Position numbers and translations under genes: made by a program. 32,895 nt of DNA from Dehalococcoidia bacterium. Its GTDB lineage: Bacteria; Chloroflexota; Dehalococcoidia; Dehalococcoidales; DAOWJH01. Within the stretch, counting starts at the first letter, position 1. Each line of letters begins with the position of its first letter. The stretch spans positions 1 to 32,895 of the forward strand of contig DAOWJH010000086.1 of assembly GCA_030640495.1 (NCBI GenBank), in the 5' to 3' direction. Below are positions 2,527 through 29,912 of this stretch, piece by piece. The notes under the pieces were generated by a model. The model was not told the origin of the DNA. It saw only the letters and a program-made list of their open reading frames with translations, and ran no database searches.

Positions 2527-2555
2527 TTGACTTTATCACATGAGTATGCTTAAAA
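2527..2555 (+). promoter_or_regulatory. Candidate sigma70-type promoter for the tubulin-like gene pair
   Basis: TTGACT (2527-2532), exactly 17 nt spacer, TAAAAT (2550-2555). It lies ~30 nt upstream of the ATG at 2586 and downstream of the gap stop codon. Confidence 0.45.
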
Positions 2556-2585
2556 TAGCAAAAGTATTTAATAGTGAGGTGGGAA

Positions 2586-3761
2586 ATGAAGTTAGTGGTT
2601 ATAGGCTTTGGGCAATGCGGATGCAGGATTGCCGATGAGTTTGCTCGACTAAATAAGAAAGCACATGGTCAACGTGGGATTGATATAATTATTGGCGCTT
2701 TTGCGATTAACACCGATGCGGCTGATTTAAGTGGGCTATCCAGTATAAGGTCTGATTACCGGCACAGGATTCTCATTGGGGGTCGGAAGACCGGGGGGCA
2801 TGGGGTAGGTAAAATAAATGAACTTGGCGCCGAGATAGCTAAGGAAGATGGCGATAAGGTTATTGATGCCATAAGAGGGACCAGGCGACTCTATGAGTCA
2901 GATGCCTTCTTACTAATAGCCTCTGCTGCTGGTGGCACTGGCTCTGGGGCAATACCAATAATGACGCAATATATAAAAGAGCGCCATATGGATAAACCAG
3001 TATACGACCTTATTGTCTTGCCTTTTGAGCACGAAGAGACAACGGAAGAAAGAGCTATCTATAACACAGCCACATGCATTAAATCTGTCAATTCAATAGC
3101 TGATGCCGTAATTCTGGTGGACAACCAAAGGTATATTAGAAAGAACTCCTCGCTTAGAAGCAACATGGCTAAGATTAACGCCTTGATAGTTGAACCATTC
3201 TATAATCTACTCTGTGCTGGTGAGGAGAAAAAAGCTAAATACATTGGGTCAAAAACCCTTGATGCCGGGGACATAATACAGACTTTAACCGGATGGACAG
3301 CAATAGGCTACGGCAAATCACCGGTACCAATGTTTAATTTGCCCTTTGTCCGAAAGTCTGACTTCAGGAGCAAGAGCACCGAAACCCACAAGGGAACTCA
3401 GACGATGGACGAAGCTATGAGCGAGCTATCAATTGGCTGTAACCCAATTGATGCAAGTCGGGCACTATATCTCCTGTCAGCACCATCCAAGGAAATGAGT
3501 ATGAGCTTGGTTAAGGAACTTGGAGACTATCTAAGAAGTATAGCGCAAAAGGCTATCATAAGGAATGGTGATTATCCCAGGGAAAAAGCCATTGTGGAGG
3601 TTGCTTTAATCCTGTCCGGGCTTAGCGATGTGGAAAAAATCAGGGAATACTATGATAAATCAACGAGCCTCATCCCTGAGTTTGAGAGGAGACGAGAGGA
3701 AATAGAAGGCAGACTTAAGAGTATGGAAGAGGTAGGAAAAGACTTACCGACACTACTGTAG
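2586..3761 (+). CDS. CetZ-type tubulin/FtsZ-superfamily GTPase, paralog A (391 aa)
   Basis: T1 loop GFGQCG; NTDAADL; GHGVG; tubulin-signature T4 GGTGSG (nt 2931-2948); T7 loop LDAGDIIQTL (from nt 3258). The C-terminal domain has RNGDYP...LILSGLSDVEKIREY, which parallels archaeal CetZ (RGGDYP...ILLSGVSNVPRIKEL). I prefer the ATG at 2586 (GAGGTGGG Shine-Dalgarno site just upstream; N-terminus parallels paralog B) over the GTG at 2574 in the ORF track. Confidence 0.8.
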   Translation: MKLVVIGFGQCGCRIADEFARLNKKAHGQRGIDIIIGAFAINTDAADLSGLSSIRSDYRHRILIGGRKTGGHGVGKINELGAEIAKEDGDKVIDAIRGTRRLYESDAFLLIASAAGGTGSGAIPIMTQYIKERHMDKPVYDLIVLPFEHEETTEERAIYNTATCIKSVNSIADAVILVDNQRYIRKNSSLRSNMAKINALIVEPFYNLLCAGEEKKAKYIGSKTLDAGDIIQTLTGWTAIGYGKSPVPMFNLPFVRKSDFRSKSTETHKGTQTMDEAMSELSIGCNPIDASRALYLLSAPSKEMSMSLVKELGDYLRSIAQKAIIRNGDYPREKAIVEVALILSGLSDVEKIREYYDKSTSLIPEFERRREEIEGRLKSMEEVGKDLPTLL

Positions 3762-3830
3762 ACAAAGTAGCAATACTGTGTAAGTACGATTAAACTAAAA
3801 TAATATACTTCTCTAGTATCAAGGTGGAAG

Positions 3831-5003
3831 GTGAAATTACTAGTTATAGGTTGTGGGCAGTGTGGCGGCAGGATTGCCGATGAGTTTGCTCTGCTAAATA
3901 GAAGGGCACATGGTCAGCGTGGAATTGATATAATCACTAATACCCTGGCTGTCAATACCGATGTTGCTGATTTAAGCGGGCTATCCTTTATAAGACCTGA
4001 TTACCAGCACAGAATCCTCATCGGAGGTAGGAAGACTGGTGGTCATGGTGTAGGTAAAATAAATGAACTGGGTTCTGAGATAGCCAAGGAAGATGGCGAC
4101 AAGATTATAGAATGTATTAGAACAACACGGCATCTCCATGAGACAGATGCCTTCCTGCTTATCGCCAGTGCTGCTGGTGGTACCGGCTCAGGGGCAATAC
4201 CAATACTAACGCAATACATAAAAGAGCACTACGGGGAAAAACCATTATATAATCTTATTGTCCTTCCTTTTAAGCATGAAGAGAAAATAGAGGAAAGGAC
4301 TATTTATAATACAGCGACATGTCTCAAATCGGCTTACTTAGTGGCTGACGCCATATTTCTGGTTGATAATCAAAGGTATGTTAGAAAGGATTTCTCGATT
4401 CAGAGCAACCTAGCCAAAATTAACGCCCTAGTAGTTGAGCCGTTCTACAACCTACTTTGCGCTGGTGAGGAGAAAAAGCCTAAATACATTGGGTCAAGGA
4501 TTCTTGATGCCGGAGACATAATACAGACTCTGTCGGGATGGTCAGTAATAGGCTATGGTAAATCGCAAATACCGCTGTTCAAGTTTCCTTTTGGGGCGTC
4601 TAATTTCAGGGAGAAAGCCAGTGAAAGCCAAAAGGGAGTTCAAGTAATGAACGAGGCCATAAACGAATTATCGCTCAAGTGCAATCCCTCAGATACGAAG
4701 CGAGCCCTTTATCTTCTTTCGGCGCCAGCCGAGGAAATGAATATGAGCCTGATTAATGAAATCGGGAATTGCCTAAAACGTATAGCCACAGAGGCTATCA
4801 TAAGGAGCGGCGATTATCCCAGGGAAAAACGCTCGATAGATATCACTGTAATTCTGTCCGAGCTGATTAATGTGGGGAAGGTTATGGAATACTTTACCCA
4901 AGCCATCCTCTATATCTCTTCTTACAAGAAGAGATGGGAGGGGTTAGAGCACGAACATGAAGGAATTGAAGAGGCCTTTAGGGATATACCTTCCCTGCTG
5001 TAA
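3831..5003 (+). CDS. CetZ-type tubulin/FtsZ-superfamily GTPase, paralog B (390 aa)
   Basis: GTG start preceded by AAGGTGGA. Carries the same motifs as paralog A (GCGQCGG, NTDVADL, GGTGSG, LDAGDIIQTL, RSGDYP). By eye it is ~75-85% identical to A over the GTPase domain and lower toward the C-terminus. It lies 69 nt downstream of A on the same strand. Confidence 0.8.
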   Translation: MKLLVIGCGQCGGRIADEFALLNRRAHGQRGIDIITNTLAVNTDVADLSGLSFIRPDYQHRILIGGRKTGGHGVGKINELGSEIAKEDGDKIIECIRTTRHLHETDAFLLIASAAGGTGSGAIPILTQYIKEHYGEKPLYNLIVLPFKHEEKIEERTIYNTATCLKSAYLVADAIFLVDNQRYVRKDFSIQSNLAKINALVVEPFYNLLCAGEEKKPKYIGSRILDAGDIIQTLSGWSVIGYGKSQIPLFKFPFGASNFREKASESQKGVQVMNEAINELSLKCNPSDTKRALYLLSAPAEEMNMSLINEIGNCLKRIATEAIIRSGDYPREKRSIDITVILSELINVGKVMEYFTQAILYISSYKKRWEGLEHEHEGIEEAFRDIPSLL

Positions 5004-5055: not shown

Positions 5056-5577
5056 CTATCTCTTCTCCTTGGAGAAGATTTTCCAAGCTCGCTCTATAGC
5101 CTCGGTGCGAGTTGCCCAAGCTTGGTCTATAGTCTCCTGACGAACTATTAAGGCTTGCCTCACATTCTCATCAACAGTCCTCTTGATTTGCTCTTTAGTT
5201 CGTCTAGATGTTTCTTCGGCTTGTTCTCTCGCTTTCTGATATGCCTTCTCGGCTTGCTGCTCAGCCCCCTCACGAGCCCTTAAGGCTTGTGCTATGGTCT
5301 GCTCACAGGTGCTATTGGCTTGCTGTTCAGCCTCCTTATAGGCTTCCTCCATTTGTTGTTCATTGGCCTTATATGCCTTCGCCACTTCCCTCTCAGCATC
5401 CACATAAGCGGCATAGGCTGATTCAACTCGCCCCAGAACCTCAGCAAGAGGTTCCCTAGCCTGTTCCTGAACCTCAGCAGCAGCTTCTTCCGCCTGTTCT
5501 TGAGCCTCAGTAACGGGTTCTGCCGCCTGCTCTTCAGCTTTTCTATCGGCCTTTTTCTCCAACTCCCTCGGATTCAT
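5056..5577 (-). CDS. Glu/Ala/Gln-rich predicted coiled-coil protein (173 aa), function unknown
   Basis: Uninterrupted ORF with a Shine-Dalgarno-like AGGGGG and its own candidate promoter. Low-complexity helical sequence with recurring AY-x-x-A/EQQ motifs. No transmembrane segment or signal peptide. Coding status is supported mainly by length and start context. Confidence 0.6.
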   Translation of the reverse strand: MNPRELEKKADRKAEEQAAEPVTEAQEQAEEAAAEVQEQAREPLAEVLGRVESAYAAYVDAEREVAKAYKANEQQMEEAYKEAEQQANSTCEQTIAQALRAREGAEQQAEKAYQKAREQAEETSRRTKEQIKRTVDENVRQALIVRQETIDQAWATRTEAIERAWKIFSKEKR

Positions 5578-5621: not shown

Positions 5622-5650
5622 AGTATATTGTTTGCCCAGTTAAAAGTCAA
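5622..5650 (-). promoter_or_regulatory. Candidate promoter for the 173-aa coiled-coil gene
   Basis: On the minus strand: TTGACT (5650-5645), 17 nt spacer, TATACT (5627-5622). About 40 nt upstream of the start at 5577. Confidence 0.4.
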
Positions 5651-5686: not shown

Positions 5687-7468
5687 TTATGATTCCTCTT
5701 CTTCATCCTCTTTCGCAGCTTGCTTGGCTTTATTAGCCTCATACATTCTGGCTAAGAACTCCAAGCGACTCTCAATCTTTCCCTTGTGAACCCCTTCCTC
5801 CTTTCTTTTTTCTTTGGCACTAGTTTTCCCAGCCTTACTTATTATTGCTTCCCGGGGTGTTTCTACTGGTGCCTTGGCAATCTCCTTGACCATCTCTCTG
5901 GTTACTTTGTCCGCCGCTTCAGCGCCGCCTATTGCTTCCTCAAATGCTTTTATTGATACCTTGGCAGCCTCTTTGGCAGCTCTCATTGATTGCTCAGCAG
6001 CCTCCCTGGCGGCTCTGGCTGATGCTTCAGCAGCTTCCCTAGCTGATTTACTTGCTTCTTCAGCCCTGGTTATTGCCTCCTGTGATGCCCTTGCCGATGC
6101 CCCAGTAGCCTTTTTGACAGCCCTTATTGATTGCTCAACAGCCTCTTTGGCTGATTCACTTGCCTCCTCAGCCCTGGTTATCGCCTCCTGTGATGCCTTT
6201 GTCGATGCCTCAGCAGCCTCCCTGGCTGATTTACTTACCTCCTCAGCCTTGATTATCGCCTCCTGCGATGCCCTTGCCGATGCCTCAGTAGCCTCCTTAG
6301 CCGATTTACCTGCCTCCTCAGCCCTGGTTATCGCTTCCCGTGATGCCCTTGCTGATGCTTCGGCAGTCTCCCTAGCTGATTTACTTATTTCTTCAGCCCT
6401 GGTTATCGCTTCCTGAGATGCCCTTGCCGATGCCTCGGCAGTCTCCTCGGCTGATTTGCTTATTTCCTCAGCCGTGGTTATTGCTTCCTGTGATGCCCTC
6501 TTTGATTCCTCAATAGTCTCTATAGACAGTTTGCTTATTTCCTCGGCTCTATCTATAGCTTCCTGTGACACTCTCTTTGATTCCTCAGTAGCCCCCCTGG
6601 TAGACTGGATTGTTTCCTCAGCCCGGCCTACTACCTCCTGAGATACCCTTACCGCCTCTTCAGCCGCATCCTTGGCCGATTGAATTGTTTCCTCAGCCTT
6701 GCTTATCGCTTTCTCAAAGGTCTTTGCTGAGGTGCTAGCAGCCTCCTCAGCCGACTTGGTTACTTTATCAGCCTTGCGCACTGCTTCCCGTGATGCTTTC
6801 TTTGATTCCTCAGCAACCTTCTTGGTCGCCTTGCTTACTTCCTCGGCCTCGCTTACTGCTTCCTTGGATACTCTTACTGATTCTTCAGCCGCTCCCTTAG
6901 CCAACTGGCCTACTTCTTCAGCCCGGCTTACCGCCTCCTGGGATACACTCACCGCTTCCTCAGCTGCCGCCTTAGCCAACCGACCTGTTTGCTTAGCCCT
7001 ACTTAACGCCTCCAAGGATATTCTTACCAATTCTTCAGCCGCCGCCTTAGTTGATTGGATTGTTTCCTCAGCTCCGCGTATTGCTTCCACGAATGCTTTC
7101 TTTGATGCCTCAGAGGTCTCCTTAGCTACCCTGTGTGTTTCCTCAGCTTTGCTTAGCGTCTGCTTAAAAGCATCCCTTGACTCCCTAGTAGCTTCCTCGG
7201 TTGCTTTGATTATTTCCTCAGCCCTATGCACCGCTTCCCGCGATGCTCTTTTGGCAGCATTAGCCGCCAGCTTAGCTGCCTTACTTATCTCCTCAGCCTT
7301 GGTTATGGCTTCCTGGGATACTACTATTGAGCCTTCAGCCGCCTGCCTAGCCAACTGGCTAAGTTTCTCAGCCCTAGCCACTGCTTTTTCAAAGGCTCCG
7401 GTATCACCTTCTGTATCCCCTAAGACTTCAAGGGGGACATTACCCAGTTTCTTGGCTTTACTATCCAT
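5687..7468 (-). CDS. Repetitive Ala/Glu/Ser-rich coiled-coil protein (593 aa) built from 25-residue repeats, function unknown
   Basis: Long ORF with no transmembrane segment or signal peptide. The consensus unit SQEAIxRAEExxKxAxExAExSxRA recurs at residues 51, 76, 101 ... 426, exactly 25 aa apart. Acidic C-terminal tail EDEEEES. Confidence 0.7.
   Translation of the reverse strand: MDSKAKKLGNVPLEVLGDTEGDTGAFEKAVARAEKLSQLARQAAEGSIVVSQEAITKAEEISKAAKLAANAAKRASREAVHRAEEIIKATEEATRESRDAFKQTLSKAEETHRVAKETSEASKKAFVEAIRGAEETIQSTKAAAEELVRISLEALSRAKQTGRLAKAAAEEAVSVSQEAVSRAEEVGQLAKGAAEESVRVSKEAVSEAEEVSKATKKVAEESKKASREAVRKADKVTKSAEEAASTSAKTFEKAISKAEETIQSAKDAAEEAVRVSQEVVGRAEETIQSTRGATEESKRVSQEAIDRAEEISKLSIETIEESKRASQEAITTAEEISKSAEETAEASARASQEAITRAEEISKSARETAEASARASREAITRAEEAGKSAKEATEASARASQEAIIKAEEVSKSAREAAEASTKASQEAITRAEEASESAKEAVEQSIRAVKKATGASARASQEAITRAEEASKSAREAAEASARAAREAAEQSMRAAKEAAKVSIKAFEEAIGGAEAADKVTREMVKEIAKAPVETPREAIISKAGKTSAKEKRKEEGVHKGKIESRLEFLARMYEANKAKQAAKEDEEEES
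5936..7318 (-). repeat. In-frame 75-nt (25-codon) tandem repeat array inside the 593-aa gene
   Basis: 16 consecutive units with exact 25-codon spacing, then an 11-codon insertion and ~2 more units. The most similar units span about 6011-6493 (SQEAITRAEE(I/A)SKSARE(T/A)AEASARA). Confidence 0.85.
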
Positions 7469-7487
7469 CTTTCTAAACCTTCCCTCT

Positions 7488-7516
7488 ATTGTATGCTGAG
7501 GCGCTCAATTTTTCAA
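7488..7516 (-). promoter_or_regulatory. Candidate promoter for the 593-aa repeat-protein gene
   Basis: On the minus strand: TTGAAA (7516-7511), 17 nt spacer, TACAAT (7493-7488). It is very close to the start codon at 7468, which implies a short 5' UTR, so confidence is low. Confidence 0.3.
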
Positions 7517-10820: not shown

Positions 10821-10948
10821 TCAATCGAAATAAGGTAAATTTGGATTAAGTGAACTTTGAGTTTATCTATGTGGTAGGCATATACTATTTTTAAAAGGGG
10901 TCCCCCAAATGCCCGATGAAACACCAGCGGCTACAAAGGAGACTAGAT

Positions 10949-12322
10949 ATGGGCATGTCGGATTTATTTAACCCAAATGTGGAAAGGCTGAAAGCTAAGG
11001 GAGATGTTAAAGGCTTGATAAAAATGTTGGAGAACAAGAGAGAGCGGAGTGCTCGATTGGGTGCAGCCGACGCTCTGGGAGATATAGGCGATGCAACAGC
11101 AGTAAAACCCCTCATCCAGGCATTAAAAGATGAAAATAGTGATGTTCGGATGGTATCAGCATGGGCTCTTGGAAAAATACCAGATACAGCAACGGTAGAA
11201 CCCCTCATCCAGGCGTTAAAGGACGAATACCGAGGTGTTCGCTCGGAAGCAGCACGCGCCCTTATAGACATAAGAGACACGAGAGCAGTAGAACCCCTCA
11301 TCCAGGCTCTGAAGGATGACCACTGGGAAGTTCGGTTGCACGCAGCGGAAGCTCTTAAACAGATAGGGGGTGCAACAGCGGTAGAACCGCTCATGGGTGC
11401 CTTAAAGGATGAATATGACGATGTTCGAACGGCAGCATCAGAGGCTCTGGTAAAGATAGGGGACGCAAGGACAGTAGAACCTCTCACCCAGGCTCTAGAG
11501 CATTCGCTTCATCATGTGCAATATGAGGCAGTAGAGGCTCTGGCAAACATAGGAAAACCAGCACTGGAAGGTCTAATTCAAGCCTTGAACAGTGAGGATA
11601 TAGTTGTTCGAGCGAGAGCAGCAAAGGCTCTGGCAGAGATAGGGGACGCAAGGGCAGTAGAACCCCTCATTCAGGCTCTGAAGGATAAAGATTGTCGGGA
11701 TGATGCACTATTGGCAGTAACAAACGCGCTTGAAAGGATGGGAGATGCGGCAGTAGAACCACTCATTCAGACTTTGAAGGACGAAGATAGCAGCGTCCGA
11801 TGGAATGCAGCAACAGTTCTTGAAAACCTGGACTGGGAGCCTAGAGGTGATGCTGAAAGGCTTGACTACTTGGTTGCCATGCAAAGGTGGGATGAACTAG
11901 TAACATTAGGAGCACCGGGGCTGGAGCCAGCCATCCAGGCATTGAACCATGAAAGTCGCTTTATTCGCCTCGCTGCAACACATGCTCTTGAACAGACAAG
12001 GGATGCAAGAGCAGTAGAAGCCCTCATCCGTGTGTTGAGGGATGATGAAGACTGGTATGTTCGAATGAGTGCAGCACACACCTTGGGGGAGATAAGAGAT
12101 GAGAGGGCGATAGAGTCCTTCATACAGGCTTTGTTAGAGGATGAAGATAGCAGTGTTCGGGGGAAAGCAGCAATGGTTCTTGGAAAGATAGGTGATGAAA
12201 GAGCGGTAGAAGCCCTCACTCAGGCACTAAAAAAGGAGAAAAATGAATTTGCTTGGGACAATGCGAATGAAGCTTTAAGCAAGTTGAAAAAGAAGAAAAA
12301 CGAGGATGTTAAACAAGAGTAG
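10949..12322 (+). CDS. HEAT-repeat protein (PBS-lyase/EZ-HEAT-like repeats, about 13-14 units)
   Basis: A ~31-aa unit [31 protein letters not shown] is repeated throughout. I prefer the ATG at 10949 (AAGGAG at 10936-10941, 7-nt spacer) over the ATG at 10916 in the ORF track. Confidence 0.85.
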
Positions 12323-17075: not shown

Positions 17076-18275
17076 ATGATTGGAGGTAAAAAGATTAAGC
17101 CTTTAGTGTTTGTTAGTTTAGCTTTAGTTCTAGCGCTCTCTCTAGTGGCTGGTGCTTGTGCTCCAGCGGCACCAGAGGAGGCTGCCGAGGAGGTTGCCGC
17201 GCTGGAATCAAAGTTAGCTGCGGAAAAGTCCAAAGTCTCTAGTCTGGAGGGCGAGGTTTCTGACCTGGAGGGCGAGGTTTCTGACCTGGAGGGCGAGATT
17301 GCTGAGCTAAGAGCACCGGCTGAGGTGTTTGAGTGGAAGTTCCAAACGTGGGCTACCCCGGGAGACATAGACTTTGCGGGCTACCAACTTTCAATAGAAG
17401 AGCTTAAGGCGGCATCTGACGGCCGGATAGATATTGAACTATTTGGTGTCGGGGTGCTAGTGGGAGGGGTTGAGGCAATTGAAGCTGAGGGCGCAGGAAT
17501 AATTGATGGAAGTTTCGCCTTTGGTGGCTATTATTCGGGTTATGACTTCGCCTTTGGAGTCGCCGGCTCCCCAGCCTCCCTCTTCCCAGACTTTAGGACC
17601 CATACGCTGTGGTTCGAGGAGTTTGGCGGTATCGAGCTAATGAGAGAACTTTACGGCGGGTACAATATTTATTATGTCTGCCCAATAGAGCTGGTTGCCG
17701 AAGCTATAAACTCCGTGGTCCCCATCAGGAACCTTGATGACCTTCAGGGATTAAAAATCAGATTGGGGGGTGGGGGTTTTTGTGCTGAGGTCTTTACCAG
17801 GGCGGGAGCCGTAGTTCACTTTATATCTGGAGGCGAGATTTATTCGGCGCTGGATACAGGGCTTGTTGAAGCTGGTGAATTCGTAGGCCCAACCACGAAT
17901 TGGGCGCTCGGTCTCCATGAGGTTACAGACTATGTCTTATGGCCGGCACCTCATAATAGAACGATATACACCGAGCTGACGCTAAATATGGATGTCTGGG
18001 AAGGGTTGCCTGACAACCTCAAGGATCTCATTCATGCGGCGCGACATACAATTTCAGCGAACAACCGTTACAGAATACTGGCTGCCGATTTGGACACAAT
18101 AGACAAGATGGTTGCTTTAGGTCTAGAGCACACAGTGTTCGCACCTGAGAGTTGGAAGGTGCTGGAGGAGTTGAGTTTTGAAGTCGCTTTAGAGTCCAAG
18201 GAGAAGAGCCCAATGAGTGAGAGGATGATTACCTCACAACTTGATTTGTTGGAGCGCCTAGGGTACATAGATTAG
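17076..18275 (+). CDS. dctP: TRAP transporter solute-binding protein (DctP-type) with lipoprotein signal and N-terminal coiled-coil stalk
   Basis: Signal peptide with lipobox-like LVAGAC. Heptad segment at residues ~40-80. DctP-family features (GLKIR, YSALDTGLVEAGE). Followed by dctQ and dctM. Confidence 0.8.
   Translation: MIGGKKIKPLVFVSLALVLALSLVAGACAPAAPEEAAEEVAALESKLAAEKSKVSSLEGEVSDLEGEVSDLEGEIAELRAPAEVFEWKFQTWATPGDIDFAGYQLSIEELKAASDGRIDIELFGVGVLVGGVEAIEAEGAGIIDGSFAFGGYYSGYDFAFGVAGSPASLFPDFRTHTLWFEEFGGIELMRELYGGYNIYYVCPIELVAEAINSVVPIRNLDDLQGLKIRLGGGGFCAEVFTRAGAVVHFISGGEIYSALDTGLVEAGEFVGPTTNWALGLHEVTDYVLWPAPHNRTIYTELTLNMDVWEGLPDNLKDLIHAARHTISANNRYRILAADLDTIDKMVALGLEHTVFAPESWKVLEELSFEVALESKEKSPMSERMITSQLDLLERLGYID
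17244..17306 (+). repeat. 21-nt (one heptad) tandem repeat: two perfect copies and one imperfect copy
   Basis: CTGGAGGGCGAGGTTTCTGAC at 17244-17264 and 17265-17285, then CTGGAGGGCGAGATTGCTGAG at 17286-17306. This encodes LEGEVSD LEGEVSD LEGEIAE. Confidence 0.95.
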
Positions 18276-18301
18276 TGGTATAGACGACTATAGTTACAAG
18301 T

Positions 18302-18337
18302 CTGGGGGGTGTAGGGTAGTTTCACTATGCCCCCCAG
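18302..18337 (+). other. Intercistronic hairpin between dctP1 and dctQ1
   Basis: CTGGGGGG (18302-09) and CCCCCCAG (18330-37) form an 8-bp GC-rich stem with a 20-nt loop. There is no clear U-tract. Confidence 0.35.
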
Positions 18338-18423
18338 TGTTTGTGAACTTCATTAGAATTTTGATTAAAAACTTAATACATTCCATAATATAGCCCTTAT
18401 TATATAAGGACGGTTCATAAGGA

Positions 18424-18927
18424 ATGAAGTCTTTTTTGTCAGTTATTGACAGCATGAGTGAATGGTCGGGAAAAATCTTTTCCTTTTTAGTGTTGGCGGC
18501 AGTCCTGGTAGCAACCTACGAAGTGGTAATGAGGTATGCCTTTAACGCCCCTACCGTGTGGAGTCTTGACCTGACCATATTTTTGTGTGGTGCCACCTAT
18601 GTGATGGCGGGAGCCTATGCCCATTACCATAACGCCCATGTTAAGATAGAGGCATTGTATGGGCGCTGGACGCCACGGACGAGGGCTATGGTTGACTTGT
18701 TGGTTACTGCTCCGCTGTTATTTGGCTTTTGTGGTGTGCTGGTATGGGTAGGGATAGGATGGACTTGGGAGGCCATAGTCGGAAAGATAACCTATTATAC
18801 AGAGTGGCACGCGCCCATCTGGCCGATGAGGCTGATAATAACCTTAGCCGCCTTTCTTCTGCTACTTCAGGGATTGGCTAAATTCATTCGCGACCTGGCT
18901 ACTATCAAGGGAAAGGGAGCAGTATGA
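18424..18927 (+). CDS. dctQ: TRAP transporter small permease
   Basis: 167 aa with 4 predicted transmembrane segments. Its stop overlaps the dctM start (ATGA). It is a paralog of 22438-22950 and 28164-28679. Confidence 0.85.
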   Translation: MKSFLSVIDSMSEWSGKIFSFLVLAAVLVATYEVVMRYAFNAPTVWSLDLTIFLCGATYVMAGAYAHYHNAHVKIEALYGRWTPRTRAMVDLLVTAPLLFGFCGVLVWVGIGWTWEAIVGKITYYTEWHAPIWPMRLIITLAAFLLLLQGLAKFIRDLATIKGKGAV

Positions 18928-20243
18928 GTCCCGAGCTGGTTACTGTGGTGATGGTGGGCTCCTTTTTTGTATTGCTGGCAGTAGGGGTTCCTCTTGCCTG
19001 GGCTGCTGCCGCCGTGGGTCTGGCAGTCGGTTTCATCCTGTCGGGTCCCGACATTTTCCCTATGCTCGTTTACCGCATCTGGAACACAATGTGCAGCTGG
19101 AGTCTGATAGCTGTTCCCCTGTTTGTCTTCATGGCGAATATGCTGCAACATTCTGGAATAGCCGATGACCTGTATGAAGCCTTTTACCGTTGGTTGGGTC
19201 CGATTAGAGGCGGCCTGGCAATGGCCAGTGTGGCAGTCTGCACCCTTGTGGCGGCGATGCTGGGGACAGCCGGAGCCGGTGTAACCATAATGGGGCTCAT
19301 TGCTCTCCCGGCTATGCTCAAGCGCAAATATGACAAACGTTTAGCCTGTGGGAGTATTGTTGCCGGTGGTAGTCTAGGAGTGCTCATCCCACCCAGCATA
19401 ATGTTTATCATTTATGGCATGTTCGCCGGCGTATCAATAGGGAAGTTGTTCATGGGTGGCATCCTCCCAGGCTTGCTCCTTTCTTTCTTGTACATTAGCT
19501 ATATAGGCATCAGGTGTTACTTGAATCCACAGGCTGGTCCAGCACCATCCAAGGAAGAAAGAGCAGCAATTACCTTACGCCTAAAAATCACTGCTACCAG
19601 GAGCTTAATCCTACCCATCTTGCTCATCGTGGCCGTTTTAGGGTCTATTTTCAGCGGAATAGCTACCCCTGGGGAAGCAGCCGGGGTAGGGGCTATAGGG
19701 GCGATGTTATGTGCTGCTGTCCGTCGCCAATTTACCTGGCAAAATTTGAAGCTATCACTCTACGGAACTATGAGGACCATCGGTCTGGTTATGTGGATTG
19801 TATTTGGAGGTATGATCTTCATCACTATTTATACACTTGCCGGCGCCACCGACTTTGTAAGTGGGGTGCTATTTGCACTGCCCTTAGGTCCTTGGGGCAC
19901 CCTCATTGTAATCCAAGTCATACTAATCCTCCTGGGAATGGTTCTTGAGACTATCAGCATTATTGTGCTATGTGTGCCCATCTTCGTCCCCGTTATCACC
20001 GCCTTGGGCTTTAGCCCCCTATGGTTCGGAGTTCTGTTCAACATTAATCTGCAGATAGCTTACTTATCGCCGCCCTTTGGCTACTCCCTGTTCTATCTGA
20101 AAGGGGTGGCGCCTCCGGAGATAAGTGTCACCGACCTTTACCTTAGCGTCTGGCCTTTTATAATACTTCAGTTGATTGGTCTGGTTCTGTGCATGATATT
20201 CCCCCCGATAATCCTGTGGCTTCCTGGTATGATGATAAAATAG
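18924..20243 (+). CDS. dctM: TRAP transporter large permease
   Basis: 439 aa polytopic membrane protein. Conserved segments GGLAMASV...GLIALPAMLKRKYD...GSLGVLIPPS...LSPPFGYSLFYLKGVAPP are shared with the two other copies. Confidence 0.9.
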   Translation: MSPELVTVVMVGSFFVLLAVGVPLAWAAAAVGLAVGFILSGPDIFPMLVYRIWNTMCSWSLIAVPLFVFMANMLQHSGIADDLYEAFYRWLGPIRGGLAMASVAVCTLVAAMLGTAGAGVTIMGLIALPAMLKRKYDKRLACGSIVAGGSLGVLIPPSIMFIIYGMFAGVSIGKLFMGGILPGLLLSFLYISYIGIRCYLNPQAGPAPSKEERAAITLRLKITATRSLILPILLIVAVLGSIFSGIATPGEAAGVGAIGAMLCAAVRRQFTWQNLKLSLYGTMRTIGLVMWIVFGGMIFITIYTLAGATDFVSGVLFALPLGPWGTLIVIQVILILLGMVLETISIIVLCVPIFVPVITALGFSPLWFGVLFNINLQIAYLSPPFGYSLFYLKGVAPPEISVTDLYLSVWPFIILQLIGLVLCMIFPPIILWLPGMMIK

Positions 20244-21143: not shown

Positions 21144-22304
21144 ATGGAATTGAAAACTAAAAGACTATTGATGCTAGTTGGTAGTGTTTGTCTAGCCGTG
21201 ATGCTAGCACTGCCGCTGGTGGCAAGTTGTGGTCCAGCAGCACCAGAGGAGGGTGCCGAGGCTGAGCTAGAAGCGAAGCTAGCTGCAGAGAAGGCGAAGG
21301 TCTCTAGTCTGGAGGACGAGGTTGCCGACCTGGAGGACGAGATTGCCGGGCTAAGAGCACCAGGTGAGGTATATAAATGGAGACTGGCTGATGAATATGG
21401 CGCCGCGATGACTAGCTGGTGTCTCGACCCCCTTATTGCTGATATTAGCGACATGAGCGGTGGGCTAATTAAAATTGAGGGATACGCTTCAGGAGTGCTA
21501 GTGCCGGATGACCAGGCGCTTGATGCCTTAGATAAGAATATCATTGATATGGCACGTACTGCGTCAGCCTACTTTGCTGATAAGATGGACACCGCCATGC
21601 TCAATTGTTTGCCCTTTATTTGGCAAGATGATGTAGAGTGCGAGATACTCCTTCATAAATTAGGGCTTGAGGACATTATCCGTGAAGGCTATGCTGATCT
21701 TGGCGCTTACTATCTAAGCGAAAGTATGTCAGGTCCATACTATATGTTAACAAACACGCCTGTCACCTGTATTGCAGATTTACAACCGCTCAAGATCAGG
21801 GCTACCGCCACTAATACTCCCTGGCTAGCGGAGCTAGGGGTGTCAAGCACCTACTACCCTGCCGCCGAACTCTACACTTCATTATCTACAGGTATTGTTG
21901 ATGGGGCTATCTACGGGGGAGCGACTGACTACACAGATCTGGGGCTATTTGAGGTTGCCACATATATTATAAAGCCGACGGTTTACAATCCAGCATGCGA
22001 CCTGTACCTAGTAAGCCTGGACCTGTGGAACTCACTGCCTAAGAATCTTCAAACAATCCTGACCGCAGCAGGTAGGAAAAGCAGCCGCTTTATATACAAT
22101 GAGTTCCAGAGAAGAGAGATTGTCGACCTGGCGGCGGCCATGGAAACTTATGGCGTCACTGTAACCCATCTTCCAGCTGAAGACCAAGCACTGATATTCC
22201 AAGCAGCCGACAAGCAGTGGGACGAACAAGCTGCACGGAGTGAGCGCACTGCAAGAGGAATTGAAATTATCAGAAGCTGGCACGAAATTCTACGCGGCTC
22301 GTAG
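21144..22304 (+). CDS. dctP: TRAP transporter solute-binding protein (DctP-type) with lipobox and coiled-coil stalk
   Basis: Lipobox LVASC, then PAAPEE and the heptads LEAKLAAEKAKVSSLEDEVADLEDEIAGL. Also LKIR and LSTGIVDGAIYG motifs. AGGAGG Shine-Dalgarno site. Confidence 0.8.
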   Translation: MELKTKRLLMLVGSVCLAVMLALPLVASCGPAAPEEGAEAELEAKLAAEKAKVSSLEDEVADLEDEIAGLRAPGEVYKWRLADEYGAAMTSWCLDPLIADISDMSGGLIKIEGYASGVLVPDDQALDALDKNIIDMARTASAYFADKMDTAMLNCLPFIWQDDVECEILLHKLGLEDIIREGYADLGAYYLSESMSGPYYMLTNTPVTCIADLQPLKIRATATNTPWLAELGVSSTYYPAAELYTSLSTGIVDGAIYGGATDYTDLGLFEVATYIIKPTVYNPACDLYLVSLDLWNSLPKNLQTILTAAGRKSSRFIYNEFQRREIVDLAAAMETYGVTVTHLPAEDQALIFQAADKQWDEQAARSERTARGIEIIRSWHEILRGS

Positions 22305-22437
22305 GAAGATTTGGTCTGCCGAAGTTCCCGGTGCACAAGCAATATTTGTCACTCGTGGTCGCCTTGGCTCCTGGAGAGGGGGCTAGGGTGGCCACGAAAA
22401 CAATAAGCTTAAATCAAGAAAGGGAAAGTTGGACTAA

Positions 22438-22950
22438 GTGCTGAAATTAAAGCGTGTCCTCAGCACAATTGATGCCATAAGTAAGTGGTCAGGCTATGTC
22501 GTCATGTTCGGGACACTGGTGATAACTCTTTTTCTAACCATCGAAGTGGTAGCCCGATATGTATTTAATGCCCCTACTCTATGGGCTACAGAGTCTACCT
22601 CCATTGCTTATGGTATTATGGTACTCATCGCCGGAGCGTATGTCCTTATCACCGGTGGGCATGTCAATATGGATGCACTATACAACCGCCTCTCCCCAAG
22701 GAGAAAAGCCGCTCTGGACATATTTACTTCTGTTTTTTTCTTTACCTTTTGTGTCATATTGTTGCGGAATGGAATTCCATTGGCAATTAAGGCTATAGTA
22801 TTGCAGGAGCACTCTCAAAGTGCCTGGGGAGCCCCATGGTGGCCAACAAGGATAGCAATACCCATAGGGGCTTTCTTAATACTGCTTCAAGGATTGGCTA
22901 AGTTAATCCGTGATTTTTATACTGCTGTGACGGGAAGTAAGTTGGTATGA
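22438..22950 (+). CDS. dctQ: TRAP transporter small permease
   Basis: 170 aa with 4 transmembrane segments. GTG start per the ORF track. 4-nt overlap with the dctM start. Confidence 0.8.
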   Translation: MLKLKRVLSTIDAISKWSGYVVMFGTLVITLFLTIEVVARYVFNAPTLWATESTSIAYGIMVLIAGAYVLITGGHVNMDALYNRLSPRRKAALDIFTSVFFFTFCVILLRNGIPLAIKAIVLQEHSQSAWGAPWWPTRIAIPIGAFLILLQGLAKLIRDFYTAVTGSKLV

Positions 22951-24275
22951 GCATTGAACTTATTTCGTTATTGATGTTCGGCAGTATGCTATTACTCATA
23001 TTAAGCGGATTACCTATAGCTTTTGCCTTAGGTGGTCTATCAGTTATATTTGTTTCTTTGCTATGGGGTCCTGAAGCAATAGAGCTGATTCTCTACGCAA
23101 CCATGGATGTACAAAATATGTACACTATCGTGTGCGTTCCTGGTTTTGTCTTCACCGGGATTATTCTACAAAACTCTGGCATTGCCGATGACATGTTCGA
23201 CACAATACGAAAATGGTCTGGCCGACTCAAAGGTGGGTTGGCAATCGGTGTGGTGATTATTTGTGCTCTCTTCGGCGCTATGGTAGGAATAGCTGCAGTG
23301 GGTACCCTGACTATGGGGCTCATTGCCCTTCCGGCTATGCTTAAGCGCCACTATGATAAAGAACTAGCGATGGGGACCATTCAGGCTGGAGGTGCACTGG
23401 GTTGTCTCATTCCCCCTAGCGTCGTCTTCGCTCTTTATGGAGTTATCGCCCGACAGTCAATTGGGCAACTGTTCATGGCAGGGCTTTTCCCCGGGCTGCT
23501 GCTTGCCGGTTTATTTATTATCTATATAGTGATAAGGTGTCATTTTCAGCCCCACCTCGGGCCTGGACTCCCCCCTGAAGAGAGGGTTTCCTGGAATGAG
23601 AAGTTTGCTTCCCTCAAGGGGCTTATATTTCCTTTCCTTTTAATCTTCCTGGTTCTGGGGCTAATCATGCTGGGTGTTACTACCCCTACTGAAGCCTCTG
23701 CCGTAGGGGCTCTAGGTAGCATTATTGTGGCTATTATTCGTCGGAAGTTTAATTGGCCTATGTTGAAGGATGCCCTCCTGAGTACCATGAAACTCACTGC
23801 CATGGTTGCCTGGATCTTTATAGCCGCTCTGTCCTTTAGCCGAATATACACCGGCTTAGGAGCTGTTGAGCTGCTGGCTGGCTGGCTAGAGGGTATTGGA
23901 TTGGGACCTTGGGGTACCATCATACTGATGCAGGTCAGCTTCTTTCTTATGGGATTCGTCTTGGATGAACAGGCTATGCTTTTCATTGTTGCTCCTATCT
24001 ATATACCCATAGTTGCCGGCTTGGGTTTTGACCTCGTATGGTTTGGGGTTCTCTATGTCATGAATACAGAGATGGCTTTGCTGACACCGCCTTACGGTTT
24101 CAACCTGTTTTACATGAAAAGTATCGTTCCTAAAGGTATAACCATGATGGATATTTATAAATCGGTCATTCCCTACGTAGGGCTTCAAGCGCTGGGGTTA
24201 GCCATGGTCATGATATTTCCACAAATAGCCATGTGGCTTCCAGGCCTGGTATCGGCTAGATTAGCTCAAGGTTAA
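22947..24275 (+). CDS. dctM: TRAP transporter large permease
   Basis: 442 aa and a paralog of 18924-20243 (GLIALPAMLKRHYD, LTPPYGFNLFYMK). Confidence 0.9.
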   Translation: MSIELISLLMFGSMLLLILSGLPIAFALGGLSVIFVSLLWGPEAIELILYATMDVQNMYTIVCVPGFVFTGIILQNSGIADDMFDTIRKWSGRLKGGLAIGVVIICALFGAMVGIAAVGTLTMGLIALPAMLKRHYDKELAMGTIQAGGALGCLIPPSVVFALYGVIARQSIGQLFMAGLFPGLLLAGLFIIYIVIRCHFQPHLGPGLPPEERVSWNEKFASLKGLIFPFLLIFLVLGLIMLGVTTPTEASAVGALGSIIVAIIRRKFNWPMLKDALLSTMKLTAMVAWIFIAALSFSRIYTGLGAVELLAGWLEGIGLGPWGTIILMQVSFFLMGFVLDEQAMLFIVAPIYIPIVAGLGFDLVWFGVLYVMNTEMALLTPPYGFNLFYMKSIVPKGITMMDIYKSVIPYVGLQALGLAMVMIFPQIAMWLPGLVSARLAQG

Positions 24276-26847: not shown

Positions 26848-28167
26848 TCACCCAAGCGCAAAAACTGTTTCAGGAAGCCATAAGGCTAACTGCGGGAAGA
26901 GTAGAACCAAAACTAACACAGATGCTTGGATTATTAAAAAGGGCCAAATAGAACGGTAGATATCTGTTATGGTTACTCCAGGTGGAGCCACTCCCCTCAT
27001 ATAGAACAGACAATAGCCGAATGGAGGAGTCAAGTAGCCTAGCTGCATATTAATTATGAAAAGAACTCCAAACCATACCGGGTCAAAGCCAAAAGCCACA
27101 AGAATTGGGGCATACACGGGAATTGTCAATGTTATCATAGTTATTTCTTCTACAATGCAGCCTAAAAGTATGTAGCTTAACTGCATAAATACAACAAGCA
27201 TAATGGGTGACACTGTTAAGTCTGTCAATACTCCGCGGACTAACTGGGCAGTACCTATATCAATAAATATAGTAGCAAATATTTTCGCCCCGAAAATGAT
27301 CCACATAATGATACAGTTAATTACAAAAGTTCGGTAGCATGCCTCTTTAAATAGCTGCCAGCTAAGTTTGCGGCGAATAGCAATGGAAACTAAAATGGCA
27401 ACAGCTCCTACAGCAGCAGATTCCATAGGGGAGGCTATACCCAGAAAGATCGAACCTAGCATGATGACGATAATAACAATAGGTATAATTACTCCCCTGC
27501 TTAGAGCAAGCTTCTGCCTAAAAGGTAGCCTGTCTTCAGGGGGCACAACGGGACCAAGGCTCGGTCGAAAATGACATCTCAGACCTATATAGGTCATATA
27601 GGATGCTGATAGAATAACTCCCGGGATAAGCCCTCCGGCAAACAACCTTCCTATAGATGTGTGTGTCAACATACCAAAGATGATGGCGGTAACGCTGGGA
27701 GGGATGAGGATTCCCAATGCTCCACCAGCCATGATAGGAGCCAGTGCTATACTTTTGTCATACTTGTACCTGAGCATTATGGGAAGGGCGATAACTCCCA
27801 TGGTGATTACGCCAGCAGCGGCTACTCCTGACATGGCGGCAATTACAGTGCAAACTACCACTGTGGCTATGGCTAGGCCGCCAGGTACCGCTGCCAACCA
27901 GTGGCGTATAGCTGCATATAGTTCTTCTGCTAGGCCAGACTTTTCCAAGAGGCAAGCTATAAAAATAAATAGAGGCATCGCAACCAGGGATAGCGATACC
28001 ATTCCAGAATAGACCTGCATGGCAGCGATGGTAAGCACACGCGTCCCCCCGTAGATAAAGCCAACTACTATGGCGCTAGACCCCAAAGTGAAGGCCATGG
28101 GAAAGCCTAGAGCCAAACCAACAAAGAGGCAGGCAAGGAGTATAATTAGCAGTGTAAGAGGAGTCAC
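26848..28167 (-). CDS. dctM: TRAP transporter large permease
   Basis: 439 aa and the third paralog (GVIALPIMLRYKYD, LTPPFGYCLFYMRGVAPP). Confidence 0.9.
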   Translation of the reverse strand: MTPLTLLIILLACLFVGLALGFPMAFTLGSSAIVVGFIYGGTRVLTIAAMQVYSGMVSLSLVAMPLFIFIACLLEKSGLAEELYAAIRHWLAAVPGGLAIATVVVCTVIAAMSGVAAAGVITMGVIALPIMLRYKYDKSIALAPIMAGGALGILIPPSVTAIIFGMLTHTSIGRLFAGGLIPGVILSASYMTYIGLRCHFRPSLGPVVPPEDRLPFRQKLALSRGVIIPIVIIVIMLGSIFLGIASPMESAAVGAVAILVSIAIRRKLSWQLFKEACYRTFVINCIIMWIIFGAKIFATIFIDIGTAQLVRGVLTDLTVSPIMLVVFMQLSYILLGCIVEEITMITLTIPVYAPILVAFGFDPVWFGVLFIINMQLGYLTPPFGYCLFYMRGVAPPGVTITDIYRSIWPFLIIQASVLVLVLLFPQLALWLPETVFALG

Positions 28168-28679
28168 TTTAGCTCTTCCCTTTTAATAACTAACCAGAAA
28201 TTTCGTATAGCTAGAGCCAAAGTTTGAAGTAACATTAGCAAGGCGGCTAGAGGTATACATATCTTAACCGGATATAATGGAGAACGGAACATGGTACACG
28301 TAGTTTCTCTGGCTAGTGTAGAGCTTAGTGCCATGTTAAATCCTTGTACAAATATGAGGATGAGCAGCATAAAGAGAAGGGGGAAGGCTATTAAATCACA
28401 AATTGCCTTCCCCCTTTCTGAGAACCGGGCATAGATAACATCTGACCTAATATGCTGGTTAAGCAAAAGGGCGTAACCACCACCAATAACTGAATACGCA
28501 GCAAAGATAGCGCAGGTTATTTCATGCGCCCAATGCGTAGGTGAGTTAAATCCGTATCTTAAAACAACTTCATAGGCCAATATCAAAGTCATGAATATAA
28601 TGAGCACACTGAGAACCTTCCCGGTGTGCGCATTAATCATGCCAATAATACGCAAAAAACGTAAAAGATGATTACGCAT
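28164..28679 (-). CDS. dctQ: TRAP transporter small permease
   Basis: 171 aa with 4 transmembrane segments. 4-nt overlap with dctM. Confidence 0.85.
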   Translation of the reverse strand: MRNHLLRFLRIIGMINAHTGKVLSVLIIFMTLILAYEVVLRYGFNSPTHWAHEITCAIFAAYSVIGGGYALLLNQHIRSDVIYARFSERGKAICDLIAFPLLFMLLILIFVQGFNMALSSTLARETTCTMFRSPLYPVKICIPLAALLMLLQTLALAIRNFWLVIKREELK

Positions 28680-28703
28680 CCCTTAGGCCTGTAACTAAAA
28701 CTC

Positions 28704-29912
28704 CTATTTTAGCCCGGCTAGCTCGGCTATACCTGGCTCGTATTTGATTAGGAAATCTTGAAGTATTTGGAGTGCTTCTTGACTGGGCGCATCAGTGGAG
28801 AACTCCTCTGTAGCATCAAGCACTGCCTTCTGATATATGAGAATATCCTCAGCAGACCAGTCTATTATTTCAATTCCGCGCTCTTCTGCTATCTCCCAAG
28901 CCTCGGCATTAACCTTAGCCCCATCGTAAATTGCATAGGTGTCTGCCGCTCCAACCGCTGTGCTTACTATAGCCTTAAGGTCATCAGTAAGTTCGCCCCA
29001 TTCCGCTTCATTTACAGCGAACCAGTAACCCATCGTGTCTTGCGTATAAGGCTCTCGAATCCAATAGTCAGTGACGTCATCCCAGCCCATTTCCAGGTAA
29101 TCTGAAGCACAGGCGTAGGAAATGGCATCCACGAGGCCAGTGGCTAATGAGGTGTAGCATTCCCCCCCTGGGAACCACGTTGTTGCCGCCCCTAACGACT
29201 CCCAGGCTCCAGCGTCTGCTGTAGCCCCAGTCCTATACTTTATCCCTGGAATATCTTCTATACCATAGATAGGAACTGTTGAAGCAGTGCAACAAAACTC
29301 TCGCGTAACAACTACTGGTGTGACAATGTGTATACCAGGATAATATTTGTCAGTTTCCTCCCTTATTAGCTCAAGCACCCGACCGTTAGCCTCATATTGA
29401 AGATACTGCCTAATCTCCCAGGGTTTATATAGGACATGCGAGGCGTTGGATGCCAACATATAAAGAGGAACTTTACCTTCCCAGTAATCAAGATAGAGAA
29501 ACATCGCCGGGGTTGCGCCCGTAGAGACGAATTCTATCTGTTGTGGCACAGCACATAGCGCCCCCGGTAGCGTGGGCTCAGCAACTATGCGCCCGTCCGA
29601 CGCCTCGGTTATGTAATCGCATATATTACACAAGCAACGCCAGTGGATTCCTGCACTTGCCCAACATGATGGCTTCCATTTCAGCACCTCAGCCGGTTTT
29701 TTCAGGGCTGCAATCTCATCCTCCAGGTCGGCAACATCATCCTCCAACCCGCTAGACTTCGCCTTTTCCACAGTTAATTTTGATTCCAGCTCGGCAATCT
29801 CCCCGGCAGCCTCCTCTGGTGTCGCTGGAGCACAGCTTGCCACCAGCGGCACTGCCAGCATCAGAGCTAGACAAACACTGCCAAGTAACGTCAATAATCT
29901 TTTCCTTTTCAA
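28704..29912 (-). CDS. dctP: TRAP transporter solute-binding protein (DctP-type) with lipobox and coiled-coil stalk
   Basis: TTG start after an AAGGAGG Shine-Dalgarno site. Lipobox LVASC, then PATPEE and the heptads LESKLTVEKAKSSGLEDDVADLEDEIAAL. Also IKYR and LATGLVDA motifs. Confidence 0.78.
   Translation of the reverse strand: MKRKRLLTLLGSVCLALMLAVPLVASCAPATPEEAAGEIAELESKLTVEKAKSSGLEDDVADLEDEIAALKKPAEVLKWKPSCWASAGIHWRCLCNICDYITEASDGRIVAEPTLPGALCAVPQQIEFVSTGATPAMFLYLDYWEGKVPLYMLASNASHVLYKPWEIRQYLQYEANGRVLELIREETDKYYPGIHIVTPVVVTREFCCTASTVPIYGIEDIPGIKYRTGATADAGAWESLGAATTWFPGGECYTSLATGLVDAISYACASDYLEMGWDDVTDYWIREPYTQDTMGYWFAVNEAEWGELTDDLKAIVSTAVGAADTYAIYDGAKVNAEAWEIAEERGIEIIDWSAEDILIYQKAVLDATEEFSTDAPSQEALQILQDFLIKYEPGIAELAGLK

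Follow-up and report, generated by a model that had tools for sequence, protein, structure and literature searches.

The window analysed here, a whole stretch of 32,895 nucleotides (nt) from a Dehalococcoidia bacterium (contig DAOWJH010000086.1 of assembly GCA_030640495.1), contains two neighbouring genes, A and B, that encode CetZ-like GTPases of the tubulin/FtsZ superfamily. Both belong to a gene module specific to Dehalococcoidia, in which A, B and two genes for coiled-coil proteins, cc173 and cc593, lie between gap and dnaX. On balance, the two GTPases are probably GTP-dependent filament formers that act at the cell envelope as accessories to FtsZ. The two open reading frames (ORFs) that a preliminary description of the sequence had singled out are indeed present and co-oriented on the plus strand:

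2586..3761, + strand: gene A, CetZ-like tubulin/FtsZ-superfamily GTPase; 391 amino acids (aa), ATG start; from Pfam, PDB and an AlphaFold2 (AF2) model
3831..5003, + strand: gene B, CetZ-like paralogue; 390 aa, GTG start; from Pfam

Family assignment and predicted fold

Judged by sequence, the match of A and B, which share 67% identity along their whole length, to the tubulin/FtsZ superfamily is far beyond chance. The hidden Markov model search that the preliminary description had called for places both proteins above the Pfam cut-offs of Tubulin (PF00091; 116.4 bits for A and 111.8 for B, cut-off 33) and of CetZ_C (PF21011; 66.4 and 59.0 bits, cut-off 21.6, with 175 of the 180 profile positions covered), the latter in agreement with the CetZ-like C-terminal domain suspected there, and gives no match to Tubulin_C in either. 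Canonical FtsZ was rejected as a family for the pair, since the NCBIfam equivalog TIGR00065 matched their GTPase halves alone, with 62.8 and 53.0 bits as compared to a cut-off of 295.2. Tubulin_2, the TubZ-type domain (PF13809), stayed under its cut-off of 27 with 16.6 and 19.4 bits. Membership of the divergent FtsZ-like families FtsZl-1 or FtsZl-2 (Makarova & Koonin 2010) is unlikely, given the strong CetZ_C match.

Among the structures of the PDB, a phmmer search with A finds Haloferax volcanii CetZ1 first (4B46; 155 bits, E = 4.7e-44, residues 1-380), followed by CetZ2 (4B45; 101 bits, E = 7e-28) and the CetZ of M. thermophila (Methanosaeta, 3ZID; 57 bits, E = 2e-14). The best FtsZ reaches 40 bits (FtsZs about 1e-9, through the GTPase domain alone) and tubulins at most 33 bits (1e-5 or worse), with BtubB at 28 bits and gamma-tubulin at about 27 bits over partial regions. 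The AF2 model of A, for which 66 aligned sequences were used, has a predicted local distance difference test score (pLDDT) of 91.8 and a predicted template modelling (TM) score (pTM) of 0.90. The model shows two domains, the GTPase domain with its Rossmann-like fold and the C-terminal activation domain, together with the core helix H7. More than 1,100 tubulin/FtsZ entries of the PDB match it in Foldseek at E <= 0.001, headed by CetZ1 (TM 0.93, root-mean-square deviation 1.8 Å), CetZ2 (TM 0.92) and then 3ZID, with FtsZs at about 0.84.

The motif set quoted in the preliminary description was recovered completely in A and B: GxGQCG (7-12), GHGVG (71-75), GGTGSG (116-121) and LDAGDIIQTL (225-234), together with NTD(A/V)ADL, R(N/S)GDYP and ILS(G/E)L…EY(Y/F). 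Direct alignment puts the pair on the side of CetZ1 and CetZ2 rather than of E. coli FtsZ in T1 (GxGQxG, where FtsZ has GGGGG), in GHGVG (GLGAG in FtsZ), in T4 (GGTGSG, as against GGTGTG) and in the RxGDYP motif of the C-terminal domain. A and B depart from all three proteins by several insertions and by an Ala in place of the usual Gly before GGTGSG, a refinement of the earlier motif list. This Ala (AAGGTGSG) occurs in 44 of 47 family members, at the position that is mutated in ftsZ84 and in CetZ1 G108S.

Across 47 Dehalococcoidia sequences the T1, GHGVG, T4, DN and T7 motifs are at least 95% conserved, so that the GTP-binding residues are retained on careful alignment; those of the nucleotide pocket comprise GQCG, GHGVG, (A)GGTGSG, N160, D179-N180 and N198. 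The acidic T7 residues D226 and D229, already said to be kept in both paralogues, are invariant in 47/47 sequences and align to D215/E218 of CetZ1 and D209/D212 of E. coli FtsZ. The aligned residues show the nucleotide-binding site to be complete in both proteins and the T7 activating loop to be intact. As for the start of A, the ATG at 2586 is favoured over an alternative GTG at 2574, because a GAGGTGG Shine-Dalgarno sequence lies 6 nt 5′ of it and MKL… is the N-terminus of all orthologues.

Phylogenetic position and host

An exhaustive search of 1.84 billion cluster representatives returned 1,382 matches at E <= 1e-3, of which 78 reach E <= 1e-30. Those representatives that bear a label are Dehalococcoidia as far down as about 44% identity, and a tier at 33-35% consists of Nitrososphaerales archaea. 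The bacterial-type group comprises about 7,500 matches at 90% clustering. The close relatives of A are labelled Dehalococcoidales and Chloroflexota in NCBI, under the name "tubulin/FtsZ family protein". A neighbour-joining tree (124 sequences over 374 columns, with 200 bootstraps, no labelled Thermococcales and a single outgroup, E. coli FtsZ) unites all Dehalococcoidia-type sequences and a few deeper representatives in one clade with 83% bootstrap. The Nitrososphaerales are its nearest neighbour with a bootstrap of 11%, and Haloferax CetZ1 and CetZ2 fall in another, unsupported cluster, the deep nodes being poorly resolved. The term "CetZ-type" used in the preliminary description is thus accurate in one part, as A and B are nearer to CetZ than to FtsZ in domain, sequence and fold, and needs correction in another, as in this tree they form a clade of their own outside the CetZ1/CetZ2 group and are not demonstrably members of canonical CetZ, whose boundary is given by the Thermococcales proteins. 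"CetZ-like" is the safer label, because the clade is separate in the tree and its host bacterial, yet the proteins have the domain and the structure of CetZ.

The genes around the pair leave little doubt about the host. The bacterial character ascribed to the flanking genes holds for gap (type I), dnaX, ybaB, recR and recO, to which a gene for HGD-D can be added, and it extends to the rest of the window, with class II Lys/Asx-type and Ser tRNA synthetases, three TRAP transporters, MarR, a phosphotriesterase, an arginase-family protein and alanine racemase. The block eno, HGD-D, gap, two tubulin-like genes, dnaX, ybaB, recR and recO recurs on independent long contigs and in the closed 1.12 Mb Dehalococcoidia chromosome CP070693.1, and the closed CP070645.1 carries the same genes in the same context. 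A scan with A, taking one genome per species, gave 52 loci, all in metagenome-assembled genomes (MAGs) of the Dehalococcoidia type. One of these loci (L040, CAZSTM010000153.1) is labelled "uncultured Gemmatimonadales" and has a gap-B-cc173-cc593 block whose B groups among Dehalococcoidia B with 100% bootstrap; the label probably reflects a mis-binned contig.

The contig is bacterial, neither archaeal nor chimeric as the preliminary description had allowed, since its synteny is kept across more than 50 Dehalococcoidia species including a closed genome. Archaeal DNA that was mis-assembled or mis-binned, or a very recent horizontal gain, would be in line with CetZ being otherwise regarded as archaeal and with the slightly lower GC content of the pair (0.446 in A and 0.437 in B; 0.47-0.51 in the neighbours; window mean 0.472). 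The artefact is effectively refuted by the conserved synteny, and recent gain has next to no credibility either, with the same context in more than 50 species-level genomes and a monophyletic clade that is 28-32% identical to Haloferax CetZ1/CetZ2. Any transfer must therefore be ancient, and the low GC more likely reflects a compositional or expression effect than a recent arrival, as the module is deeply conserved.

A four-gene module with coiled-coil partners

When the loci (numbered L001 onwards) were annotated by BLAST against the window proteins, the commonest order was gap> B> <cc173 <cc593 A> dnaX> ybaB> recR>, in which A and B stand about 3 kb apart (L008-L013, L015, L017, L018, L020, L024, L026, L028, L033, L037-L039, L042, L048, L049 and L056). 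The order gap> A> B> <cc173 <cc593 dnaX> is found in the window and in L001, L005, L006 and L058, as well as in L029, where the flanking genes cannot be seen. Being limited to the lineage of the window, the tandem adjacency is a lineage-specific rearrangement. The survey of the pair in related genomes proposed in the preliminary description gave a mixed outcome: both genes lie between gap and dnaX in dozens of species, and the tandem layout described there, which most relatives do not share, is not the defining feature. B is followed by the convergent cc173 and cc593 in 33 of the 35 loci with a visible downstream region, the exceptions being L007 and L003, and A lies directly upstream of dnaX in most relatives; in some species, A stands alone between gap and dnaX.

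As supports for the A-versus-B grouping in the neighbour-joining tree were below 20%, the two sets, of 21 A and 20 B sequences, were defined by synteny alone and compared by diagnostic residues. Position 356 is Tyr in A and Phe in B (100% of each set), and further fixed differences are Asn/Ser at 327, Ser/Leu at 170 and Glu/Gly at 372. Because these residues are fixed across the synteny-defined sets, the sequences indicate that the A/B duplication is older than the divergence of these lineages and that the copies have been kept distinct.

The partner genes and the promoter candidates of the module are as follows:

2527..2556, + strand: promoter candidate of A, sigma-70-like TTGACT-18-TAAAAT; consensus scan, 10/12 matches, consensus match only
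5056..5577, - strand: cc173, 173 aa, all-helical and charged; conserved partner gene
5622..5650, - strand: promoter-like site of cc173, TTGACT-17-TATACT; consensus scan, consensus match only
5687..7468, - strand: cc593, 593 aa, Ala/Glu-rich, with 25-residue repeats; conserved partner gene
7488..7516, - strand: promoter-like site of cc593, TTGAAA-17-TACAAT; consensus scan, consensus match only

Orthologues of cc173 adjoin B in about 30 species with 37-65% identity, and their alignment shows invariant Tyr/Trp residues and the motifs AYAAY…VA.AY and EQAW…EQAW. The protein has no Pfam or PDB family, its profile searches returning helical low-complexity noise (phasin, LEA, designed helical bundles). 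The product of cc593 is 23% Ala and 18% Glu, with a repeat period of 25 and a hydrophobic period of 3.57 residues (25/7), and a faint Phasin_2 match is its only Pfam hit. Its orthologues occupy the same position, span about 440-820 aa at 34-48% identity and share conserved ends, with FEKAVARAE.LS at the N-terminus and, at the C-terminus, an IESRL(E/D)FLARMYEA helix that leads into an acidic tail. A terminator scan gave nothing above shuffle expectation and no terminator-like site between B and cc173. Two Ala/Ser/Leu-rich ORFs opposite cc593, at 5814-6416 (+, 200 aa) and 6699-7499 (+, 266 aa), are almost certainly by-products of its repetitive, GC-skewed coding sequence and not genes. At L007 (8774-10894, - strand), in one species, two other genes replace the coiled-coil genes downstream of B: the first encodes a 352-aa protein that starts with MRVIGIDPGTGSFD and looks actin/ASKHA-like, and the second a 318-aa protein with a GGEPLL motif that looks radical-SAM-like.

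The position of A, almost always directly 5′ of dnaX-ybaB-recR, raises the question of whether the pair could be a TubZ/PhuZ-like system for segregating or positioning the chromosome or nucleoid, whose filaments would push or pull DNA. YbaB is nucleoid-associated, and a deeper subclade of the family (P0148/P0297, see below), accompanied by a conserved partner gene, has resolvases and transposases as neighbours. However, gap and dnaX are mere housekeeping neighbours, the module contains no gene for a TubR-like DNA-binding adaptor, and Tubulin_2 scores 16-19 bits against the 27 required. Moreover, a tblastn search of 72,556 plasmids gave no bacterial plasmid match, all 33 matches being CetZ-type genes of haloarchaeal megaplasmids, and a search against phages gave no match. 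A TubZ or PhuZ identity, or a plasmid or phage origin, was rejected on the grounds of the low Tubulin_2 scores and of these searches, and a segregation role seems distinctly improbable.

The C-terminal peptide

A and B end in (K/R)D(I/L)P(S/T)LL, a peptide present in 116 of 120 close homologues, and variants of it (ELPLLL, DIPLLL, GLPSLL…, EVPSLL…) occur all across the bacterial-type clade. The preliminary description had overlooked both this peptide and the two conserved coiled-coil genes directly downstream of the pair. In a MAFFT alignment the peptide lines up with DIPAFL, at the C-terminus of E. coli FtsZ. In FtsZ, this peptide docks FtsA, ZipA and SepF. Many of the archaeal CetZ representatives have D-I-x-x-L-(F/L) as their last residues. 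In the AF2 model of A, the tail follows a long C-terminal helix and the confidence falls there, which is consistent with a flexible docking element. A functional tail has precedent in CetZ1, whose mutant with LESLF changed to AESGG forms no rods (bioRxiv 10.1101/2024.04.08.588506).

Previous reports and the Dehalococcoides mccartyi proteins

The existence of CetZ-like proteins in Dehalococcoidia is already known, and they are abundant in databases, so that the system is not categorically new. Proteins with C-termini matching the CetZ_C profile were listed by Santana-Molina, Saz-Navarro & Devos 2023 (PMC9871819), and probable D. mccartyi homologues appear in transcriptomes and proteomes; the word "undescribed" in the preliminary description has to be withdrawn to that extent. 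On the other hand, papers focused on CetZ still describe the family as archaea-specific, the part of Cavalier-Smith 2020 that could be consulted contains nothing on CetZ in Dehalococcoidia, and the literature searched holds no paper characterising A/B-type bacterial proteins or their gene module. The four-gene module, the two families of coiled-coil partners, the ancient A/B split and the FtsZ-like tail are unreported in that literature.

In D. mccartyi 195, the canonical ftsA-ftsZ pair is DET0342/0343, and further "FtsZ" genes are DET0589 and DET0636 (PMC5102406), which are probable homologues of A and B. Beside DET0589, the genes DET0586, DET0587 and DET0588 react to solvent toxicity, a membrane stress, and DET0588/DET0587 have been described as operon partners. 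In strain BTF08, btf_0551 (tubulin-like), btf_0595 ("FtsZ") and the neighbouring btf_0548 (hypothetical) are abundant in disc-shaped cells of pure cultures and lower or absent in barrel-shaped cells of co-cultures (PMC8163811). As for canonical division genes, mraZ, mraW, ftsA and ftsZ are reported as neighbours both in D. mccartyi and in every high-quality Dehalococcoidales/SAR202 genome investigated, and these genomes otherwise are devoid of the dcw cluster and of peptidoglycan (PMC10608941). The absence of such genes near the pair, remarked on in the preliminary description for ftsA, ftsQ and sepF, holds for the whole window, which has no ftsZ, mraZ or mraW either, and among the loci compared at that stage no canonical ftsZ was found and every protein scored at least as well against A as against E. 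coli FtsZ.

These observations bear on the possibility that A and B are extra division paralogues, recruited to an FtsA-tethered divisome after the loss of peptidoglycan and most dcw genes. They would dock to FtsA via DIPSLL and co-assemble with FtsZ or support it in constriction, in a manner likened to the dual FtsZ1/FtsZ2 of wall-less archaea. The resemblance of the tail to the FtsZ docking peptide, the presence of FtsA in these genomes (PMC5102406, PMC10608941) and the lack of a dcw cluster and peptidoglycan in Dehalococcoidales (PMC10608941) fit such a role, as does the joint drop of the D. mccartyi tubulin-like proteins and other proteins associated with division in co-culture cells that divide slowly or abnormally (PMC8163811). 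However, A and B are never linked to ftsA, ftsZ, mraZ or mraW and are linked instead to coiled-coil genes, A is only 22% identical to E. coli FtsZ, and the closest characterised relatives, CetZ1 and CetZ2, serve shape and motility. We regard a division role, the chief alternative to the reading favoured below, as possible but rather doubtful.

Proposed role

The role favoured here for A and B is that of an accessory cytoskeleton beside FtsZ. They would not be the primary division ring, because a canonical ftsA-ftsZ pair is reported elsewhere in Dehalococcoidales genomes. As for the characterised archaeal relatives, CetZ1 and CetZ2 are proteins of cell shape and motility, not of division, and CetZ1 polymerises with GTP, its E218A and G108S mutants being non-functional (bioRxiv 10.1101/2024.04.08.588506). 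By analogy with archaeal CetZ1, A and B would each bind GTP and assemble head-to-tail into protofilaments, whose turnover would be driven by GTP hydrolysis; the two may either co-polymerise or form separate filaments. The (K/R)D(I/L)P(S/T)LL peptide, carried on a helical extension behind the globular core, would act as the docking motif for a tether or adaptor, for which FtsA and the coiled-coil proteins are candidates, with cc593 and cc173 as a putative scaffold or regulator. The pair would thereby provide an accessory cytoskeleton at the envelope of peptidoglycan-free, S-layer-covered, disc-shaped cells, with a part in shape control or in membrane remodelling.

A bolder version, which we put forward only tentatively, is a self-contained cytoskeleton of archaeal type made up of the four genes, which Dehalococcoidales would have acquired or elaborated when peptidoglycan was lost. 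In that case, an A/B heteropolymer or two cooperating filaments, anchored through DIPSLL to the coiled-coil scaffold with 25-residue repeats beneath the membrane and S-layer, would set the disc shape and answer membrane stress.

Several points weigh against an accessory envelope cytoskeleton. The role proposed for this bacterial clade derives from sequence, context and a structural model, and the tail, through its resemblance to the FtsZ peptide, could equally bring A and B to an FtsA-tethered divisome. The authors of the BTF08 study read the shift in the proteome as reduced cell division (PMC8163811), and its correlation with cell shape is confounded by growth state. The assignment of DET and btf genes as probable orthologues of A, B and the coiled-coil genes derives from annotation and locus-tag order, and a canonical ftsZ alongside A and B is documented by the literature for the order as a whole. 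The module is not obligatory at one locus, given the species with A only and the two loci without the coiled-coil genes. Finally, GTPase kinetics may be atypical, because Ala replaces the first Gly of the signature at the ftsZ84/CetZ1-G108 site. Gamma-tubulin carries AGGTGSG as well, and the Ala therefore need not impair function.

In any case, a large, conserved bacterial clade shares the CetZ fold and C-terminal domain, in hosts that resemble many archaea in having an S-layer and no peptidoglycan. If the module does shape the cell or remodel its membrane, CetZ-type cytoskeletons would not be tied to archaea, these bacteria would offer a natural case for tubulin-like filaments in wall-less prokaryotes beside a canonical FtsZ/FtsA ring, and cc173 and cc593 would be the first candidate partner proteins for any CetZ-like filament. 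Should the cytoskeleton prove self-contained, it would be the bacterial equivalent of morphogenesis driven by CetZ, and its filament-associated partners would be new. Dehalococcoides is a key agent in the bioremediation of chlorinated solvents, and its disc shape and slow division are unexplained. The annotation of these genes as "cell division protein FtsZ" is misleading and affects how omics data are read. The module, its partner families, the A/B split and the tail make the system experimentally approachable.

Additional paralogues and neighbouring genes

A deeper member of the clade, P0148/P0297 (418 aa, about 38% identical to A, with Tubulin and CetZ_C), was found at L060 (10001-12305) and L061 (10001-12296) (ENA ERZ25072076), on two contigs of one sample with coverage labels of 7x and 81x. 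It lies among resolvases, IS605 OrfB/TnpB, IS66 transposases and a group II intron reverse transcriptase, and is always followed by a co-oriented gene of 324-327 aa without Pfam match; the locus looks like a mobile-element-borne tubulin-like system. A paralogue at 44% identity sits directly upstream of A (gap>A'>A>dnaX) at L046 (5679-6887) and L047 (6726-7934). Another, P0131 (44%), with a weak CetZ_C match, stands alone beside the nuo/complex I operon at L062/L063 (10001-11167).

Elsewhere in the window, a 468-aa HEAT/PBS-lyase-repeat protein is encoded at 10916-12322 (+), between a Bact_hydrolase gene and recO. It is a local insertion or replacement, because the closest relatives (L005/L006) have a different, 182-aa gene at that place. 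Three TRAP transporter sets (DctP, DctQ, DctM) occupy 13 kb at 17076-20243, 21144-24275 and 26848-29912, with genes for a MarR regulator and for phosphotriesterase-family and arginase-family proteins between them; one of the DctP proteins is extended at its N-terminus by a segment that matches PspA_IM30 weakly.

Comparison with known systems

Like BtubA/B, the genes studied here encode bacterial tubulin-superfamily GTPases in an adjacent paralogue pair. They differ from BtubA/B and from TubZ/PhuZ in the low scores given above (BtubB 28 bits, Tubulin_2 under its cut-off), and neither a kinesin-light-chain-like bklc gene nor a TubR-type partner is present with them. With bacterial FtsZ, A and B share the superfamily fold (TM about 0.84), the D-x-x-D of T7 and, by alignment, a C-terminal D-(I/L)-P-x-(F/L)-L after a linker. 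They are set apart from it by an identity of 22% to the E. coli protein, by GQCG and GGTGSG in place of GGGGG and GGTGTG, and by a location that does not adjoin ftsA or dcw genes. The non-canonical tubulin-superfamily proteins of Nitrososphaerales (Thaumarchaeota) resemble A in length and domain layout, are 30-31% identical to it and bear the same NCBI name, but they have no DIPSLL tail and, being 40% identical to CetZ1, are closer to that protein than A is.

Archaeal CetZ is the best match in both sequence and fold. A and B share with it the two-domain architecture with CetZ_C, the GxGQxG, GHGVG, GGTGSG and RxGDYP motifs of the pocket, the acidic pair of T7, a short, conserved, hydrophobic C-terminal tail and the presence of several paralogues per genome. 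The differences begin with the host, which is bacterial (Dehalococcoidia/Chloroflexota) for a family described as archaea-specific, and with sequence: A is 32% identical to CetZ1 and 28-32% to CetZ1/CetZ2, whereas CetZ1 and CetZ2 are 51% identical to each other. The M-loop of A and B is short, without the long amphipathic M-loop of CetZ1. A three-residue insertion follows LPF, and Ala replaces Gly before GGTGSG. The tail contains Pro (DIPSLL), which brings it nearer to the FtsZ peptide than to the LESLF of CetZ1. The two linked coiled-coil genes are a further difference, no report of such neighbours of archaeal cetZ having been found. The Dehalococcoidia group of PMC9871819 is evidently the same group of proteins as A and B. 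It receives there one or two sentences, as sparse and paraphyletic and with no gene context, whereas here it is a large group with two maintained paralogues, partner genes, a conserved tail and conserved synteny.

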